Shown in pieces: positions 2,285 through 52,618 of a stretch of 64,000 nt of DNA (position 1 is its first letter; each line of letters starts with the position of its first letter). The stretch covers positions 178,116 through 242,115 of the forward strand of contig CAYLRR010000001.1 in assembly GCA_964386295.1 (NCBI GenBank), read 5' to 3'. This stretch comes from an uncultured Neisseria sp. Lineage in GTDB: Bacteria > Pseudomonadota > Gammaproteobacteria > Burkholderiales > UBA11063. The position numbers and the translations under genes are program-made. The notes beneath the pieces were generated by a model. The model ran no database searches, was not told the origin of the DNA, and worked only from the letters and a program-made list of their open reading frames with translations.

Positions 2285-5194
2285 GTGGATTTGTCGTTAG
2301 CAAGGAATAAGATCATGAGTTTTCGGTTACCTGATTTTCTAACCAGTTGCTGTGTCAGGAATCATTCTGTAAAAAGCCAATATGATTTTGAAAAAGAAGA
2401 TAATCATAAGCAAGCTAAGCTCTCCTATCAAGAGGATTTAAGTGTAGCAATCGCAGGAATCAACATAAATAGCAACATTGAAATCAACTATTCTTCTTTT
2501 AATAAATTATCTAAAGAATTACCTTTGCAAGAACTTGCTAAGCGTATCGCAAAACTTGAAACAATAGCCGAATTAAAAGCAATGGAGCTTATTATCTATG
2601 GACTGCAGGAAGCCTCAAACTGCTTCGCAAAGTCGTATAGAGTTGACGTTGAAATTGCCCCTGAAATAATCCAGGCATTAAATACCCTTAAAGATGATGT
2701 TAAGCTTATTCAAAACTTGCAATTAATCGTCCGCCATCGTACCTATTTAGGTCTGGAAATGCTAAAAAATCATTCGGGAGTAAAGTTTTCGCATGATTTC
2801 ATGACCAATTATACGGCAAGTGCTGATAAGCTCAGAGAGGTAATAGTCAAACGTCAACAATCAATTTCCAGACTAAACTTATGTGGTTTTATTAAACCAG
2901 TTAACCCTACTAACAGACTTCAAGCAGAATCATTTCGCCAAAATGATAATAGTGGTAATGCAAATCAATCAATTGATGTTTCAGAAACCAAGCAATTAGA
3001 TCAGGTTTTAGATCTATCGGTTGGCCTTTCAACTGCTAGAGCGAATGAAAATGATTTTGTGGACATTTCAATCCAGTTATCCACTCGATTAGATGCATTA
3101 AACAAAGCTGCTTTTGCTGAAAAACCAGAAAAATATACTGAGTTAATAGATCTAATAAATAATTATGAGAAATTTCTAAATAACCAAATCAATCAGAACA
3201 AATTCTTATTTCAGCGTACCAAGATTGGTAGTAAAATTAATGATATTTTTTTTAATGCACAGGATATCAATACAAAATCCCAAGATCGCAGCACATATGG
3301 CAATAAATCTAACTATGAAGCCGCATTAGGTGATCTCGATAATGAAATTTCAGATTTGTTAAAACTAACTAAAAAGCTTGTAGCTAAAAGAGATCAATTA
3401 AATTCCTCCTTGCCAGAAATGGAAAGCGAAGCGCCAAAAGAAGTAAATATTAATGATAAAAATTTCTGGAAATTAAAAAAACTTACTACTTTTCCGGAGT
3501 GGCAGCTAAATATAGCAAATTGCCTTTTTAGCCGAATTAAATCTGCTTACCACAAAATAGCGGCTACACATCCCGAAACGATGGAATTCCAAGATAAAAT
3601 AGAGAGGTTAACTAAATATAAGGAGACCTTGCATAAAATACGGATACAAAGTAGTGCCGTCATAATGTCTTATCATAATGAAAAATTTAATAATTTACTT
3701 GCAGTTGCCAAGGCATGGAATGACGGAACTTTAGCTGATTTCGATAGTCCAGAATTTACAACTCCTCACCCTAAGTTTATAAAATTTGGCGAAGTTAGTA
3801 AATGCAAAGGCCCTTATGCCTTGGGCGATACTGAAGGATCCTTTTTGCGAATAGTGCATGCATGCGTTGCAGCAAAGGTTATTTTCCTTAGTCCAGATGG
3901 CGAACGGTTATTAAACCTTTTATCACATTTTGAAGGTATAATCCTTGACACGATAGACGCTATTGGACTTGCTATAAACCCTTATGAACTTGTGGAAAAA
4001 TTTCACAATAGCCTTGAATTAAGAAACCTTACATATTTCCTGTTGGAGAGCATCACTATTAACCCACAAGAAGCGGAAGACGAAGTCGTTTTTATCGGTG
4101 ATAGCCTCTTTGACCTATTAGGTCTAGATGCCAGTCTAAATATGTATTTAATTGAAAAGCTAGCAAAAAAGCCAAAAGTACATTTTATTTTTGGCAACCA
4201 TGACCTCCTTCATGGTGCTGGTTCTGGTAAGAAAAGCGGCCCAACAATAAATCGATTTATTAAAAACACTACTAGTACGCCAGCCAAGCTAAATACCCGT
4301 GAGAATAGCCTTTCTGAAAAGTACCCTTATCACCCAGTCCTCAAAGAGTATTTAAATCAGATTATACAACTCAAGACAACTATAAATAACAATCGCAACA
4401 ATAATATAAATGATCCTTTTTATTATTTGGTAAGGGATAAGTTAGTTATTAATAGGTGCTTAAATAGTGCCGGCTGCCGTAATTTTTATCAATGGATACT
4501 TGATAATTTCGAACCAGTATATTTTGATGAAAAAAACCGAGTTGTTCATTGGCATCATGGTGGGTTAATAAATCGCGACTATTTAATCTTAATCGACACA
4601 ATTTTAAACTTGCCATGTAACTCACCTGAAGCAGACGTTAATGATAATGATTTATACCGTTTTCTAGGCAAGGAAGACCTTGAAAAAGAGATTTCCGAAT
4701 TCTTTAAAAAAATAAATTATGCAAGACCTATCACTATCGGGCAATTGCGCGCATTTAAGCAAAGGATTACTATACCAAATCCAAATAATTTAACGACGGT
4801 TTTCGGTAAAATTGAATATACACCAGGTTTAACAATATACAATTTCATAAAGACAATTAAAGCAAGATTCAATATGTTATGGCTGCAATTGGCAGAGCTT
4901 AGTGTAATAACAGGTGGTGGGCAAGGAAATATAATTTATGACGAATTAACTAAAGAATTCAAAAACTTTGGCGACAATAATATTATCAACTTCAGACCCA
5001 GTGATGAACAGAACAATGATCTTGCTGAATTATTTAAGGTTTTCTCACATATCGGCCACCACGGCCCAGCTGCAGTTGGCAGTTATGTATTTCGCTCAAA
5101 TAATCAGCAAAATGGAAAATATGAACCTATCTTTTTCAGCATTTCCGCATCGTTGGAACAATCTAACAAAAATAGACAAAGTAGTCAAAGATAG
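2285..5194 (+). CDS. Large protein: N-terminal helical/coiled-coil region plus a metallophosphoesterase domain; paralog of the upstream gene
   Basis: Motifs LGDTEG, IGDSLFD, FGNHDL, WHHGG, HIGHHG. Likely start is ATG 2315 after AAGGAA. Confidence 0.8.
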   Translation: MDLSLARNKIMSFRLPDFLTSCCVRNHSVKSQYDFEKEDNHKQAKLSYQEDLSVAIAGININSNIEINYSSFNKLSKELPLQELAKRIAKLETIAELKAMELIIYGLQEASNCFAKSYRVDVEIAPEIIQALNTLKDDVKLIQNLQLIVRHRTYLGLEMLKNHSGVKFSHDFMTNYTASADKLREVIVKRQQSISRLNLCGFIKPVNPTNRLQAESFRQNDNSGNANQSIDVSETKQLDQVLDLSVGLSTARANENDFVDISIQLSTRLDALNKAAFAEKPEKYTELIDLINNYEKFLNNQINQNKFLFQRTKIGSKINDIFFNAQDINTKSQDRSTYGNKSNYEAALGDLDNEISDLLKLTKKLVAKRDQLNSSLPEMESEAPKEVNINDKNFWKLKKLTTFPEWQLNIANCLFSRIKSAYHKIAATHPETMEFQDKIERLTKYKETLHKIRIQSSAVIMSYHNEKFNNLLAVAKAWNDGTLADFDSPEFTTPHPKFIKFGEVSKCKGPYALGDTEGSFLRIVHACVAAKVIFLSPDGERLLNLLSHFEGIILDTIDAIGLAINPYELVEKFHNSLELRNLTYFLLESITINPQEAEDEVVFIGDSLFDLLGLDASLNMYLIEKLAKKPKVHFIFGNHDLLHGAGSGKKSGPTINRFIKNTTSTPAKLNTRENSLSEKYPYHPVLKEYLNQIIQLKTTINNNRNNNINDPFYYLVRDKLVINRCLNSAGCRNFYQWILDNFEPVYFDEKNRVVHWHHGGLINRDYLILIDTILNLPCNSPEADVNDNDLYRFLGKEDLEKEISEFFKKINYARPITIGQLRAFKQRITIPNPNNLTTVFGKIEYTPGLTIYNFIKTIKARFNMLWLQLAELSVITGGGQGNIIYDELTKEFKNFGDNNIINFRPSDEQNNDLAELFKVFSHIGHHGPAAVGSYVFRSNNQQNGKYEPIFFSISASLEQSNKNRQSSQR

Positions 5195-28728: not shown

Positions 28729-29706
28729 ATGAAAACCAAAACCTTTTTTCTAATCTCCACTTTGATTATCCTAATTGGAATTACTGTTATTCTTAATCAA
28801 TTTGCAATGTCAAAGACTATCATACCTTTTAACTTGGATAGGCCATTAGCTTCATTATACAGGTTGGAGCATACAGTTAATCCAGTCGTATTTCTTGGTG
28901 ATTCTCGGACAAAATATCAGGTTGATACAGAATATTTAAATAATACCCATGCGTTAAGTGCAAATGTAACTAATGGTGGAATTAATGGGTTCTATTACCC
29001 TTACCAGATAGCTGCTTTTAAGGTAGCAGCTAATAATCCAAATATCCACAAAATCTATTTTTCTATGCCCATTCGGGATATTTTTGGCAAAGTCCCATTG
29101 AACCCGGGTAATTTTGGAAACTTTATCAGCCCCGGATTATTGCTGCCATTATTGATGATGCCGCAAGTCGGATTAAATTTAAAAGGGCAAATGGTCAGCG
29201 CAGCCGTAAATAATATAATCGATCTGCATTATATCTTATATTATTTGCAAACTACTTTAATGCCAAACGACAAATTTAGTTCAAGTAGCCAATACTGCCA
29301 ACAACAATCAGCTTCATTATTTCAAAAAGTATATGTTTGTAAAAACGGAGATGGTTATATAATTTCTAATTCTGCTCCTAAAAGAAAGTCAATCCGTAAC
29401 GTAGTAGTTAATATAGATAATGTAACGAATGGGTTTTTATATACTTTTATGAACATGAAGCAAATGACTTCTGCTACACATAAAGATTTATACCTGGTCT
29501 TGCTTCCAGAATATGGTGTGAAATATCAAATAGATATAAAGCAACTTGAAGCAAAATTAGGGGTTACGGTCATAGATATGTCACATACTTTTAAAAATGA
29601 AAGCGACATCAAATACTGGGTTATCGATGAGGGGCACTTAAATCAGCAAGGTCGAGAGATCTATACCAAATTACTGATAAATAAAATAGTGGACTTAAAA
29701 AACTAA
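28729..29706 (+). CDS. SGNH-fold periplasmic acyltransferase partner (AlgJ/PatB/DltD-like)
   Basis: N-terminal TM, LGDSR block I, DEGHLN (DxxH) block; 6 nt after the MBOAT gene. Confidence 0.75.
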   Translation: MKTKTFFLISTLIILIGITVILNQFAMSKTIIPFNLDRPLASLYRLEHTVNPVVFLGDSRTKYQVDTEYLNNTHALSANVTNGGINGFYYPYQIAAFKVAANNPNIHKIYFSMPIRDIFGKVPLNPGNFGNFISPGLLLPLLMMPQVGLNLKGQMVSAAVNNIIDLHYILYYLQTTLMPNDKFSSSSQYCQQQSASLFQKVYVCKNGDGYIISNSAPKRKSIRNVVVNIDNVTNGFLYTFMNMKQMTSATHKDLYLVLLPEYGVKYQIDIKQLEAKLGVTVIDMSHTFKNESDIKYWVIDEGHLNQQGREIYTKLLINKIVDLKN

Positions 29707-29995: not shown

Positions 29996-30973
29996 ATGCG
30001 TTTGAAAAAAAATAAATTCTCTCTAGTAGCTAAAATAACGTTACTTTTAATGTTAAGCATACGTTGTTTTGCAGCCTCTCATTCTAGTAGCGCACACTTT
30101 GCATCTACTCATCAGTTTTCTGCGCATTTTGCAAGACAAGCAACTACCCTAGGTTCTTCAAAAGTAGCGGTAAGCACTATGACAGGCAATAGCCACCCAG
30201 CCCAAGCAACGGCAGTCGGATTAGGATCCAAAGAGGAAACAAGCCTTAGCCAGACGGTAGCTACTATAAGTTCAAATGATAAGTTGGCGGCTGTAGCTCC
30301 AGCCAAAGTTAGTTCCATCACTGATAACTCGCAAACGAGTACAATTAACTCACAAGCTAACACAACTAGCACACAAAATAACACTATTAGTTCACAAATT
30401 AACCATATAGTAATTGATAAACCTATGGTTTCCTATGCTCCCAGCAGTAAGCCGGATACTGCAACTCTTACCACAAGTGGTTTTGGGCCCAAACTAACAG
30501 GGCCTAATCAACAAAGAATTACTTATTCGCCGCATAGTAAACAAACTCGAAAAATGGATAGTTTAACCAAGGCAACAGTTGAGACATCGACAACTTCGAC
30601 GACCACAACAACTAGCTCAAAGTCTGGGGCTAAGCTCAGTACTACACCATCTAGCCTAAATAAAGTTAATTTCGTCCCACTTTCCACTACCTCGGCAGTT
30701 ACGTTGCAGTCTATTGCCAAGGCGAATTTAGGTACACTAACTACCGAAGCGTTACTTGAAAAAACACCCCCTGAATTAGCGGCACAGAAATATAAGTCGC
30801 CAGTTTCAGCTAGTAAAACAAGACAAAAACTCTATAAAGCACTTGCTGAATATGGCATGGCAGTTGGTGGAAGTTCAGCTATTATTAGCGCACTGATTAT
30901 GTTAGCTAATTATCGTATGCGCAAACGGGTATTTGCTAAAATTGCGAAAAAGGTAAAATTAAGCTTCGCGTAA
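29996..30973 (+). CDS. Ser/Thr-rich surface protein with a C-terminal TM anchor and basic tail
   Basis: Signal peptide, low-complexity S/T body, GMAVGGSSAIISALIMLA followed by YRMRKR. Confidence 0.7.
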   Translation: MRLKKNKFSLVAKITLLLMLSIRCFAASHSSSAHFASTHQFSAHFARQATTLGSSKVAVSTMTGNSHPAQATAVGLGSKEETSLSQTVATISSNDKLAAVAPAKVSSITDNSQTSTINSQANTTSTQNNTISSQINHIVIDKPMVSYAPSSKPDTATLTTSGFGPKLTGPNQQRITYSPHSKQTRKMDSLTKATVETSTTSTTTTTSSKSGAKLSTTPSSLNKVNFVPLSTTSAVTLQSIAKANLGTLTTEALLEKTPPELAAQKYKSPVSASKTRQKLYKALAEYGMAVGGSSAIISALIMLANYRMRKRVFAKIAKKVKLSFA

Positions 30974-34425: not shown

Positions 34426-34677
34426 ATGTACAAGAATCAAAAAACCCCAAACTCTAGATTGTATGTCGGTGAATTGGACCACAAAGTAACTGTTGAAGTA
34501 CTAAAGGAACTATTTAGCAGATACGGAACAGTATTATCAACAACTTTAAGTAAATCCCAGTCTCCTGATCTCAATTTTGGGTTTATAAGTATGTCAAGCC
34601 TTTATGAAGCTAGAGCGTGCGTTGAGAACTTAAATAATTTTATTGTTAATGATAACCCTATAATAGTTAGGTTTTGA
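34426..34677 (+). CDS. RRM (RNA recognition motif) protein, divergent
   Basis: RNP2 LYVGEL, RNP1 NFGFISM. Confidence 0.85.
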   Translation: MYKNQKTPNSRLYVGELDHKVTVEVLKELFSRYGTVLSTTLSKSQSPDLNFGFISMSSLYEARACVENLNNFIVNDNPIIVRF

Positions 34678-34854: not shown

Positions 34855-35160
34855 ATGGAACTCATAATGAAAAAGTCCCTATTCGTTGCAGGTCTTGACT
34901 ATGCAATTACTAACGAAAATTTAAAAGAAATCTTTAGCGCTTATGGCATAGTAGAAACTGCTAAAGTAGTTACAGACAAATTCTCAGGCCAAAGCCGTGG
35001 CTTTGGTTTTGTAGATATGTCAACTCAAGAAGAAGCGCAAAATTGCATTAACAGCTTAAATAACTCGACAGTAAACAGCAGACAAATTGTTGTTAAGTTT
35101 AAAGAAGACAAGCCATCAGAAAACCGAAACCAGAGTAGAGGTTATAACTCTCGCTGGTAA
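34855..35160 (+). CDS. RRM protein, canonical bacterial Rbp type
   Basis: RNP2 LFVAGL, RNP1 SRGFGFVDM, short R/N/S-rich tail; likely start 34867. Confidence 0.93.
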   Translation: MELIMKKSLFVAGLDYAITNENLKEIFSAYGIVETAKVVTDKFSGQSRGFGFVDMSTQEEAQNCINSLNNSTVNSRQIVVKFKEDKPSENRNQSRGYNSRW

Positions 35161-36706: not shown

Positions 36707-37088
36707 AAAAATGCTGCAATAAATTTAAAATTTTCCCATATCCACATAATAACTCAGTATCAAATAACAAGTAATTTAAATGATTTTGTCTTTTTAAATC
36801 CAGATAATATGAAATGCTGGCAAGACGATCAAATTGATTAGACGAAGGTGGAGTAAGTTGTTTGATGATAAAGAAGTAAGATACAGATACCCCTACCAGA
36901 TGCGACATACTTACGCTTCTACCTTATTAAGTAATGGGGAAAATATAGCCTGGATAGCAACACAGATGGGGCATATCAATACTGAAATGGTAATCAGGAA
37001 TTACGGAGAATTTATTCCTAATAGTAACTTGCTTGGCGGCTATACACTAAAGGGCAAAATAGATTTAGTTACCAAATTGTCACCTTGA
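36707..37088 (+). pseudogene. 5'-truncated, frameshifted phage-type tyrosine integrase
   Basis: NDFVFLNPDNMKCWQDDQ / +1 shift near 36833 / IRRRWSKLF...RYRYPYQMRHTYASTLLSNGENIAWIATQMGHINTEMVIRNY. Confidence 0.9.
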
Positions 37089-37103
37089 ACCACCAACCCT
37101 ATC

Positions 37104-37116
37104 TAACATATTGATT
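37104..37116 (-). promoter_or_regulatory. IHF consensus box in the att arm (second box at 31243-31255)
   Basis: AATCAATATGTTA matches WATCAANNNNTTR exactly; the distal copy AATCAATATGTGA has one mismatch. Confidence 0.55.
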
Positions 37117-37130
37117 CTATTAGGTATTTG

Positions 37131-37514
37131 TGGTGGAGATGGCGGGAATTGAACCCGCGTCCGAAAGTCCTCTACAACGAGTACTACATACTTAGTTAAG
37201 TCTTTTGGCATTCGCCAAAATTACGCCGGCTTAACAGGCTTAATTTCAGCTAACCGCTTAGTTTCAACCTAAATCTGCGGTAAATTTAGATCTAAGCCTA
37301 TTTGATTGGCGTTACAGCTTAACCAATAGGCAAGTTAAGTGTAACGGAGCAGAACTTAAGCTGCTGCAGCGGCCATAACAGAATCGTTAGATGCTGCTAG
37401 GTCGAATTTTTTAAATGTGTTTGCATTTACTTTGTTTACAGTGTTTTACGTGGGCTGTGATCACGGTATGCACTCTGATTGCTTTGTCACCCCCGTCGAA
37501 GCCATGTCATCCCC
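37131..37514 (-). ncRNA. ssrA: tmRNA
   Basis: 5' GGGGATGACATGGCTTCGAC, 3' GGTTCAATTCCCGCCATCTCCACCA, G3-U pair in the acceptor stem, tag ORF 37424-37356. Confidence 0.97.
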
Positions 37515-37620
37515 GAGGTACAATTTTGTCAGTAAGGTATTATACTATAATTCCCCTAAACGTGGATAGATAAAAAATTAGGCAAACCCTTTTGCTGTAA
37601 TATTTGTTAGGAATTATCGA

Positions 37621-38019
37621 TTATAATCTATAAATTTCCAGCTCTTTATAACCTGTGATTGGCTCATACTCTCGCTTGAATTGGTAATTCATCAATTCTA
37701 CAATTACTATCTCAGCGGTAGTATGGATAATATTCCCATCCATTAAATGGCCACCAATTACCTTACCATTTGCATCAGCAAGGCTAATATGTAAATGTAA
37801 CCCGGTATTGGCTAAGGTACCTACTAAAGAAACAATCTCATAATTATTTATCTGTTGATAATATTCTTTAGCACTCGCCAATCTTAAATTTACCTCAGCC
37901 AAACTGCCAACACAGGTCACAATGGCAGCTGAGGTCAGGTTATTATTACGAGCATAGTCCGCTAAAGCACCCTTCAAGTCTGCCCCTGGTTTTAAGCGAA
38001 TTGGATGAAATTTATACAT
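37621..38019 (-). CDS. PPC/DUF296 domain protein
   Basis: IRLKPGADL, TCVGSL, EIVSLVGT, HLHISLAD...GGHL. Confidence 0.93.
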   Translation of the reverse strand: MYKFHPIRLKPGADLKGALADYARNNNLTSAAIVTCVGSLAEVNLRLASAKEYYQQINNYEIVSLVGTLANTGLHLHISLADANGKVIGGHLMDGNIIHTTAEIVIVELMNYQFKREYEPITGYKELEIYRL

Positions 38020-50887: not shown

Positions 50888-52618
50888 ATGCTAGCTGCAA
50901 ACCTGAAAAATACACCACCCACTACGCAGCCAAGAGAGACTAGCACAAAATCAGAAACTCCAAGATACTCAAGCTTTTTAGCTAAGGACGCACAGAAAGA
51001 AAATACGAGTTTATTTCAGGCAAGCACGCTATCTCATGATACCCCACTAAAAACTAATATAAGGTACTCAATCCCGTTCAAAGAAAAACCCAAAGAAGAA
51101 AACCCTTTCTCAACCTCTAACAACAGTTTAGTATCCCCAAATAACCATCTAAATAATGGAGTAATGGCGTCAGCTCCGCAACAAGCACAAGTTTCTTACC
51201 AAACTGCTAGCACTCCTGACATAACACCAGCGAATCATGAGACCACCCCAATAGAACCAGCTTTGGCCACACCAGACAGGCCAGCAATGAAGAAAATCAT
51301 AGAGCAGCTGATAAATTTAATTAGCAAGCACCATTTGGAAAAAAAACCATCATACATAAGAAGATATTCTGAAGAAGAATATAAATCTCTTCGTTTACAG
51401 TTAGCAGGATTAGTGCTTGGCCTAGTTAAAATGTCACAACCTATGAGGATATCCAAGGTATCCAGGGAAAAATTTGAAGCGCCATGCAACTTCCAGGTAT
51501 ACAGTGATAAGGAATTTGCTCACCTGCTTGGTTCTTTGCACTTGCCAGAAAGTTTGCCTTTAGCACCGGGAATTTATGGAATTTATCCTGATAAGAACAA
51601 GCCAACCCATAAATGGGTTGGTCCCAATAAACCAGATACCTTTTATCAAGTATATCAAGAAAATACAACACCACAAAAAATTTCATTAGCCAAGGGGATA
51701 AAAGCAAAAAATTTCATGAACAACCAAGGTTTTGACTGGCAACAACTCAATATATTCTTTGGTGACTTACAATTACCTCCAAATGGTTTACATATTCTTG
51801 AAAGTACACATGGGACAATATATTACGTAATTAGGTCCGACGGAGTAGTACAAAAATATAACTCCCTTAAAGAAGAACATAGAGAAAGTGTAAATAGCCT
51901 TGCAGGTCAAGCAATTCCACCTGATGAGCTCCGGCAAAAATATCAGCTCCCTTTTCCTACTTCATTTGAATTAGCAAAAGCAGAACTGTATTTCAGGTTT
52001 AAGATCAAACCTGGTTCAAGGAAAGAGCAAATGTACACCCAATTCTTAGACGAATTCAAGGAGGCGTTAAATTCTTGGAGTAAGAACAACAATATCAATT
52101 TCTCTTCATTAACTACTGAGGAGAGAAACACACTAATTACTGAGTTATCTGATGCCAAGTACAAGTTCAATGTAAAGAAAATTTATGAAGTTTTACAAAA
52201 TAAAATAAATAAAGCCAATGAGACTGAGATAAATTTCGCTAAAATTGAAGGTATGATTATCATTTATTCAGCCTATCTTCACAAATTAGTAAAATTTAAG
52301 CTTAAAACATATTTTCCTGACTCATTTCTCGAACATTTTCCTACTGCAAAAGAAATAGATTATGAAATACAGTCATTAGTTAGGGCTGCGAAAAAAAAAG
52401 ATGAGGTAGAGTATAAACCTAAAAAAGAAATGTGGGAACTTCTAGATAGCTTATTTAATCGGCAACAGATTAGGAATCATTTAGACACTAAATATGATAA
52501 AGAAAAAGAAGAAAAAGGCGAAGCGGTTGTTTTCCTAAACGCAAATATCGCCAGCCTCTTTACTGAACTTAGTAATAAACTTCACCCGGCTAAACCAGAA
52601 GAAATTTTTGATTTCTAA
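50888..52618 (+). CDS. Hypothetical protein, effector-like
   Basis: 576 aa; P/T/S-rich low-complexity N-terminal ~130 aa, charged helical C-terminus, no signal peptide. Confidence 0.7.
   Translation: MLAANLKNTPPTTQPRETSTKSETPRYSSFLAKDAQKENTSLFQASTLSHDTPLKTNIRYSIPFKEKPKEENPFSTSNNSLVSPNNHLNNGVMASAPQQAQVSYQTASTPDITPANHETTPIEPALATPDRPAMKKIIEQLINLISKHHLEKKPSYIRRYSEEEYKSLRLQLAGLVLGLVKMSQPMRISKVSREKFEAPCNFQVYSDKEFAHLLGSLHLPESLPLAPGIYGIYPDKNKPTHKWVGPNKPDTFYQVYQENTTPQKISLAKGIKAKNFMNNQGFDWQQLNIFFGDLQLPPNGLHILESTHGTIYYVIRSDGVVQKYNSLKEEHRESVNSLAGQAIPPDELRQKYQLPFPTSFELAKAELYFRFKIKPGSRKEQMYTQFLDEFKEALNSWSKNNNINFSSLTTEERNTLITELSDAKYKFNVKKIYEVLQNKINKANETEINFAKIEGMIIIYSAYLHKLVKFKLKTYFPDSFLEHFPTAKEIDYEIQSLVRAAKKKDEVEYKPKKEMWELLDSLFNRQQIRNHLDTKYDKEKEEKGEAVVFLNANIASLFTELSNKLHPAKPEEIFDF

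Follow-up and report, generated by a model that had tools for sequence, protein, structure and literature searches.

The tmRNA gene (ssrA) of an uncultured freshwater bacterium related to Aquella most likely encodes a tag of about twice the usual length, which is common to its closest relatives. The gene lies on the minus strand of the window, that is, the whole 64,000-nt stretch of DNA analysed here. It probably specifies a standard one-piece tmRNA on which translation resumes at an upstream GCA codon (site 1), yielding a 22-codon tag in which a C-terminal degron is preceded by an acquired N-terminal spacer. The gene, its frame, the conservation of site 1, the open frame in the relatives, the predicted hairpin and transcription are shown below; the codon that the ribosome uses, and the proteases or adaptors that read the tag, are inferred.

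The ssrA gene and its reading frame

The match of the gene to the tmRNA model of Rfam (RF00023) reaches 196.1 bits (E value of 1.8e-78, gathering score 47) and extends over model positions 1-374 of 374. The tRNA-like domain shows an acceptor stem GGGGAUG/CAUCUCC with the G3.U pair, a T-arm and a 3′ CCA, the molecule reading GGGGAUG.../...GGGUUCAAUUCCCGCCAUCUCCACCA from end to end. The gene and its parts, in window coordinates, are the following.

37131..37514, minus strand: ssrA, one-piece tmRNA, 384 nt (ARAGORN and Rfam RF00023)
37438..37465, minus strand: pseudoknot 1 (PK1), gene positions 50-77, CGUG/CACG and ACAG/CUGU (sequence and Rfam alignment)
37425..37437, minus strand: single-stranded spacer, 13 nt, AAACAAAGUAAAU, with the frame-setting U(-5)A(-4)A A U at its 3′ end (sequence)
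37422..37424, minus strand: proposed resume codon GCA, gene position 91 (site 1; Rfam alignment, relatives and PWM)
37356..37424, minus strand: tag ORF, 22 codons ANTFKKFDLAASNDSVMAAAAA and UAA stop at 37358-37356 (translation)
37392..37424, minus strand: first half of the tag, ANTFKKFDLAA (translation and relatives)
37359..37391, minus strand: second half of the tag, SNDSVMAAAAA (translation and relatives)
37392..37394, minus strand: alternative resume codon GCA of ARAGORN, gene position 121 (site 2)
37373..37401, minus strand: predicted mid-ORF hairpin CCUAGCAGCAUC-UAAC-GAUUCUGUUAUGG, whose loop at 37386-37389 contains the Asn-13 codon (RNA folding)
37345..37371, minus strand: helix 5, GCAGCAGC-UUAA-GUUCUGC, with the UAA stop in the loop (RNAfold of the mRNA-like domain)

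Translation of the reverse complement of 37430-37353 gives VN-ANTFKKFDLAASNDSVMAAAAA-stop-V, with GUAAAU directly 5′ of the GCA at 37424-37422. The 22-codon frame that an initial annotation of this DNA had placed after GUAAAU, at 37356-37424, is thus borne out by translation, and within a full-length tmRNA. The pattern (A/S)N...AA that it had noted in both halves is present in the window sequence, and its description of the tag as unusually long for a proteobacterium holds, with 22 codons against 10 in E. coli. As is characteristic of tmRNA, the UAA stop falls within the helix 5 loop and the last residues of the tag are AAAAA; besides its poly-Ala C terminus, the tag contains two Phe residues in its first half.

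The tmRNA is transcribed, since two metatranscriptomes (X4 and X7) hold contigs that match it exactly. RNA depth is close to zero on both sides of the gene (bins 37100-37115 and 37516-37560), with traces only in the 37116-37131 bin. Contigs of about 360 nt from X4 and X7 match the 5′ part of the tmRNA through approximately the four first tag codons (37411-37505), as well as its 3′ end, and diverge over the middle ~200 nt; from this pattern, they look like one more related lineage.

Relatives and the proposed upstream resume codon

Three lineages were recovered beyond that of the window, all of them uncultured freshwater or wastewater bacteria. The first comprises two variants, X8 and X9, which share about 93% identity with the window tmRNA and were rebuilt from riverine metatranscriptome and freshwater metagenome contigs; the second, L127, was reached through a homologue of the neighbouring antiporter (65% identical); and the third, L129-L132, through a scan of metagenomes with a PK1 pattern, which yielded no other new lineage. 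Read from site 1, the tags are ANLSEKFGPAANAEAAAVAA and ANLSEKFGPAANADMAAVAA in the two variants (20 aa each), ANKINLADLVAANDSDYAAAAA in L127 (22 aa) and ANNTFANMEASNDDSMLQVA in L129-L132 (20 aa), so the frame is open in all relatives over 20-22 codons to the same stop. The features common to the lineages are A1-N2 at the start, an A-[A/S]-N-[D/A] core at mid-tag and an Ala-rich or hydrophobic C terminus (AAAAA, AAVAA, LQVA). Between the window and L127, neither the 37-nt run containing PK1 nor the sequence of helix 5 shows any difference.

Several lines of evidence point to site 1 as the resume codon. The Rfam alignment sets the consensus resume sequence 'GCaAACg' on the GCA of site 1, which lies 13 nt 3′ of PK1, to be compared with 12 nt in E. 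coli (PMC2481249). According to the published rule (PMC2481249), resumption depends on U85 and A86, at positions -5 and -4, together with a purine at -3 and a pyrimidine at -1; the window context GUAAAU·GCA (the dot marks the start of the codon) conforms to it, as does site 1 in every other lineage. The position of site 1 was compared with a background sample of 109 standard tmRNAs, collected by scanning contigs with a tmRNA 3′-end pattern (Streptomyces, Chloroflexi and others; no close relative of the window tmRNA was found among the matches listed). In this non-random sample, the coding start called by ARAGORN falls within positions 87-100 in 100 of the 109 tmRNAs among the matches listed.

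A resume-context PWM was built from the 58 unique natural contexts called by ARAGORN in the same sample, again among the matches listed, and is partly circular because these contexts come from the program's own calls. The 58 contexts show A at -4 and a pyrimidine at -1 in 100% of cases and a purine at -3 in 96%. Site 1 scores 12.7 bits in the window and 10.9-12.7 bits across every lineage. The stretch UAAAU·GCA AAY, right after the invariant PK1, is kept in four of the four lineages (window, X8/X9 variants, L127 and L129-L132), and site 1 is the only candidate resume site conserved in all of them.

The reading frame itself behaves as a coding one would. Frame 0 is the sole stop-free frame in every lineage, the other frames carrying 1-3 stops each; the chance of stop-free variable codons is 0.40-0.57 per lineage, and the product of ~0.06 is weak evidence when taken alone. 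The distance from the GCA of site 1 to the conserved AAC of the second half amounts to 36, 33, 33, 36 and 33 nt in the five sequences. L129 differs from the window by insertion of a whole codon, AAU, between AAC and ACA UUU, and synonymous changes are seen at Asn-2 (AAC to AAU) and Phe-7 (UUC to UUU). These comparative tests are low-powered, since they draw on only four closely related lineages (DnaB 89-96% identical). Taken together, the evidence makes the 22-codon reading from site 1 the probable one and better supported than the reading of ARAGORN.

The two halves of the tag

The second half of the tag looks like a canonical-type degron, as judged by its length and its pattern, with an A-[A/S]-N-D core and an Ala-rich end. 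Its counterparts in the relatives are AANDSDYAAAAA in L127, ASNDDSMLQVA and AANAEAAAVAA. The E. coli tag is (A)ANDENYALAA (PMC2481249), and the L127 second half AANDSDYAAAAA comes near to it (AANDENYALAA).

The first half is the fastest-evolving stretch of the tmRNA. Between the X9 variant and the window, 14 of 23 substitutions fall inside the 66-nt ORF, and identity across lineages is restricted in the first half to A1, N2 and the terminal A. The position of the window's internal LAA is occupied in the relatives by GPAA, LVA and MEA. Because of its fast evolution and of an internal LAA that is not conserved, the first half resembles a spacer of constrained length, with 9-10 variable residues, and not a second degron. 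The initial annotation had pointed to the internal LAA; it is neither kept in the relatives nor located at a C terminus. As a whole, the tag looks like a normal one with an added N-terminal stretch specific to the lineage.

A different origin would be a tandem duplication of an ancestral 11-codon ORF (22 = 2 × 11) whose first copy has since diverged, which would make the tag double by origin, its function aside. Both halves do start with x-N and finish in A, the window and L127 tags measure exactly 2 × 11 codons, and two lineages retain vestiges of a UAG resume context ahead of the second half. Nucleotide identity between halves reaches 15/33 and 17/33 (shuffle p values of 0.003 and 0.0002), but almost all of this similarity comes from the constrained first two and last codons, the interior giving p values of 0.07, 0.04 and 0.74. 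The relatives, moreover, divide into 10+10 or 11+9 codons in some cases. A search for direct repeats between the halves (seed 6) found none, and local alignment of the first half with its context against the second half with helix 5 was no better than shuffles (p values of 0.3-1.0). With no significant nucleotide similarity between halves, duplication is not demonstrated, and we regard it as unlikely. The 'double tag' proposed in the initial annotation is accordingly not retained, the tests of interior identity, direct repeats and local alignment being all negative; an extension of the N terminus of a normal tag is the description that we prefer.

The downstream GCA codon

ARAGORN reports for the window a tag of 12 aa, ASNDSVMAAAAA, which starts at gene position 121 and comprises the second half only. 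Were this call right, translation would resume at the GCA of 37394-37392, the tag would be (A)ASNDSVMAAAAA and 30 nt of the interval from PK1 to the codon would be an untranslated structural insert. The program makes the same choice in L121 and L127. The second half, as noted, resembles canonical tags of the ANDxxYA..AA type, most of all in L127 (ANDSDYAAAAA, a near-perfect match), and U-A-G occupies positions -5 to -3 of site 2 in both the window and L127. L127 alone has a good site 2 context, GUAGCU·GCU, which is E. coli-like and reaches 6.8 bits in the PWM, against 10.9 bits for site 1.

The remaining evidence is contrary to this call. The site 2 context is missing in the X8/X9 variants (GGCCCU·GCA) and in L129 (AUGGAA·GCG, with G at the position equivalent to A86). 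In the window, site 2 (CUAGCA·GCA) has A at -1, which is found in none of the 58 natural contexts, scores below -5 bits and lies outside the top four candidate positions. It is 43 nt from PK1, and its codon falls inside the stem of a predicted hairpin that is conserved (see below). An untranslated insert, in addition, would need neither an open frame nor length changes by whole codons, yet both are observed. In L129-L132, ARAGORN itself calls the long tag, of 20 aa, from site 1 (position 89), whereas for the window, L121 and L127 it gives the short tag of the second half, although the upstream resume context is the same; automated tag annotation is inconsistent across these relatives. We therefore consider resumption at site 2 improbable. 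The initial annotation had foreseen that the resume codon might map to the second half: ARAGORN does call it there, but the comparative evidence, context and position favour site 1. Tagged peptides containing ANTFKKFDLAAS would fit the 22-aa reading from site 1, and peptides with ASNDSVM... only would fit the call of ARAGORN.

The predicted mid-ORF hairpin

The tag ORF is predicted to fold between site 1 and helix 5 into a hairpin (37373-37401 in the window; MFE of -9.4 kcal/mol, z score of -2.9). The hairpin is predicted in five of the five sequences, with a UAAC or UAAU loop that holds the Asn codon of the second half and z scores of -2.9, -2.0, -3.1, -1.6 and -7.1. Its stems vary between lineages: double changes occur in five of nine pairs, and 69% of cells are paired compared with 57% after shuffling, a comparison that is suggestive but, with five sequences, of little power.

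The extension may also be functional, in that the variable module of ~10 residues, together with the hairpin, would change the routing to adaptors or proteases, or the way in which RNase R and the ribosome handle the mRNA-like domain; long and short tags might alternatively be produced through the two contexts. We give this proposal little weight. A bipartite tag with a degron or adaptor site in each half, or the use of both resume sites to make two tags with changed protease routing, would accommodate the internal LAA and terminal AA of the window and the partial resume contexts at two sites in the window and L127, but is very improbable, given that the internal LAA is lost in relatives (PAA, LVA, MEA), that ClpX-type recognition requires a free C-terminal carboxylate, as established for E. 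coli ssrA, that first-half residues change very fast and that the site 2 context is absent in two lineages. A single tag of 22 codons, started at site 1, is the reading followed below.

Host and gene neighbourhood

The window has a G+C content of ~35% and carries the housekeeping genes typA, dnaJ, serS, mutS, dnaB, nth, ppsA, fabF and gcvP/T. Its TypA is 90% identical to that of Aquella oligotrophica (Betaproteobacteria, Neisseriaceae) and 84-92% identical to those of many MAGs labelled 'Burkholderiales' or 'Neisseriales'. All finds of the tmRNA sequences came from metagenomes or metatranscriptomes of freshwater, lakes, rivers and wastewater. A Francisella affiliation, which was considered, is ruled out by this betaproteobacterial TypA.

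The long-tag lineages, whose DnaB proteins are 89-96% identical, have dnaB-nth...tmRNA synteny in common. In a search via homologues of the antiporter and of nth, the tmRNA was found to adjoin the locus only in L121 (the same species), L127 and L129; in more distant relatives it is missing from this place, with no tmRNA within 10 kb of nth in the nearest cultured relative, Aquella oligotrophica CP024847.1, or at four other loci. Close relatives differ in the genes that separate nth from the tmRNA (37621-38019, minus strand, in the window), with the antiporter and PCC in the window, the antiporter only in L127, and PCC and ~2.9 kb of other genes in L129. Neither sspB, clpA, lon nor smpB was found among 32 of the 37 window ORFs of at least 150 aa and nine small ORFs that were scanned.

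On the other side of the gene, 43 nt from the tmRNA 3′ end, an ORF of 84 aa (36834-37088, plus strand) matches only the C-terminal part of PF00589 (profile 113-165, E value of 3e-5). Homologues of this phage integrase-like ORF, 51-52% identical, adjoin the tmRNA in L127 and L129. It is probably the remnant of the integrase of an ssrA-targeting island, kept across the clade. An att-type repeat of the tmRNA 3′ end was sought in the window but not detected, and for this reason no intact island is defined.

Other features of the window include two adjacent proteins of 83 and 101 aa (34426-34677 and 34855-35160, plus strand), each with an RRM_1 domain (E values of 3.5e-12 and 2.1e-21), in a stretch of lower GC content and small ORFs at 31-35.5 kb, and an IS110-family transposase (16729-17736, minus strand; DEDD_Tnp_IS110 and Transposase_20). 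ORFs without a Pfam match at E ≤ 1e-5 are found at 164-2086, 2285-5194 and 50888-52618 (plus strand; 640, 969 and 576 aa); two ORFs of 325 aa, at 28729-29706 and 29996-30973, likewise have none.

Discussion

In the mechanism that we propose, Ala-tmRNA with SmpB in a stalled ribosome would direct resumption at the GCA of 37424-37422, chosen by the upstream U(-5)A(-4)AAU, and translation would stop at the UAA of the helix 5 loop, adding (A)ANTFKKFDLAASNDSVMAAAAA to rescued proteins. The C-terminal half would be the working degron. Its A-A/S-N-D core corresponds to the N-terminal portion of canonical proteobacterial tags, the portion that SspB binds in E. coli, and its Ala-rich C terminus would provide a ClpX-type ...AA-COOH end. 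The first ~10 residues may be a weakly constrained spacer, gained in the ancestor of a small, Aquella-related clade of freshwater betaproteobacteria, and in the RNA the added ~30 nt would be accommodated in an additional hairpin, 3′ of the resume codon and 5′ of helix 5.

Since tags of at least 20 aa are common in other phyla, the case described here is a modest lineage-specific variant combined with a miscall by a predictor, and the result is incremental, such tags being already well known elsewhere. What is specific here is the Aquella-related clade, the combination of a spacer with a complete canonical degron, the extra hairpin in the ORF and the shortening of the tag by a standard predictor. 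Because ARAGORN, which common pipelines use, reduces the tag of the window and L127 to its second half, catalogues of tags that rely on its calls would lack the extension. Tag length appears to vary even inside Proteobacteria, and an in-frame upstream extension, stored as a hairpin, could place a complete degron ~10 residues away from the rescued protein. The clade thereby offers a natural test case for the distance that can be tolerated between resume codon and degron, and for the effect of a spacer on delivery by SspB to ClpXP.

Comparison with known systems

The window tmRNA resembles E. coli SsrA in its tRNA-like domain with G3.U and CCA, in PK1 followed by a spacer of ~12 nt, in the U-A-purine-N-pyrimidine·GCA AAC resume region, in the stop codon within the loop of helix 5 and in the Ala-rich end of the tag, whose second half shares the A-A/S-N-D...AA layout of canonical beta- and gammaproteobacterial tags. 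It differs from E. coli (ANDENYALAA) by its 22 instead of 10 codons, by ~10 extra residues between the resume 'AN' and the degron and by the extra ORF hairpin.

Among the Mollicutes, the M. pneumoniae tag has 27 aa and is read by Lon (PMC8403727). The Mycoplasma tag is described as having a high content of hydrophobic and aromatic residues and as an adaptation to Lon in hosts that lack ClpXP and adaptors (PMC8403727). Like that of M. pneumoniae, the window tag far exceeds those of E. coli and B. subtilis in length; unlike the Mycoplasma tag, it ends in ClpX-type poly-Ala, and its host is betaproteobacterial.

In the tmRNA of Francisella tularensis, the ORF and helix 5 occupy bases 110-200, compared with 90-150 in E. 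coli (PMC4176180). This species is also proteobacterial, with a coding region ~30 nt longer than that of E. coli, but belongs to an unrelated gammaproteobacterial lineage and has its resume codon further from the 5′ end (position 110). Its tag, of ~22 aa with an internal '...AANDSNF...' core, would share the arrangement of a spacer ahead of a canonical core.

In the non-random background sample, ARAGORN calls tags of at least 20 aa in 18 of the 109 standard tmRNAs among the matches listed. Long tags in the sample include those of Caldilineaceae (22 aa), Peribacteria (24-30 aa), Spiroplasma (25-26 aa) and a gammaproteobacterial MAG, L024 (22 aa). All are of the same length class as the window tag, but their sequences are unrelated to it, the phyla are different and none has an A-[AS]-N-D core at mid-tag. 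The tmRNA of L024 (410-797, minus strand) encodes the tag AKNLVTKVRTALSMPVLASVAV at gene positions 91-159, and its extra ORF folds as an internal hairpin. Given the unrelated 22-aa tag of L024, long tags recur sporadically in Proteobacteria.
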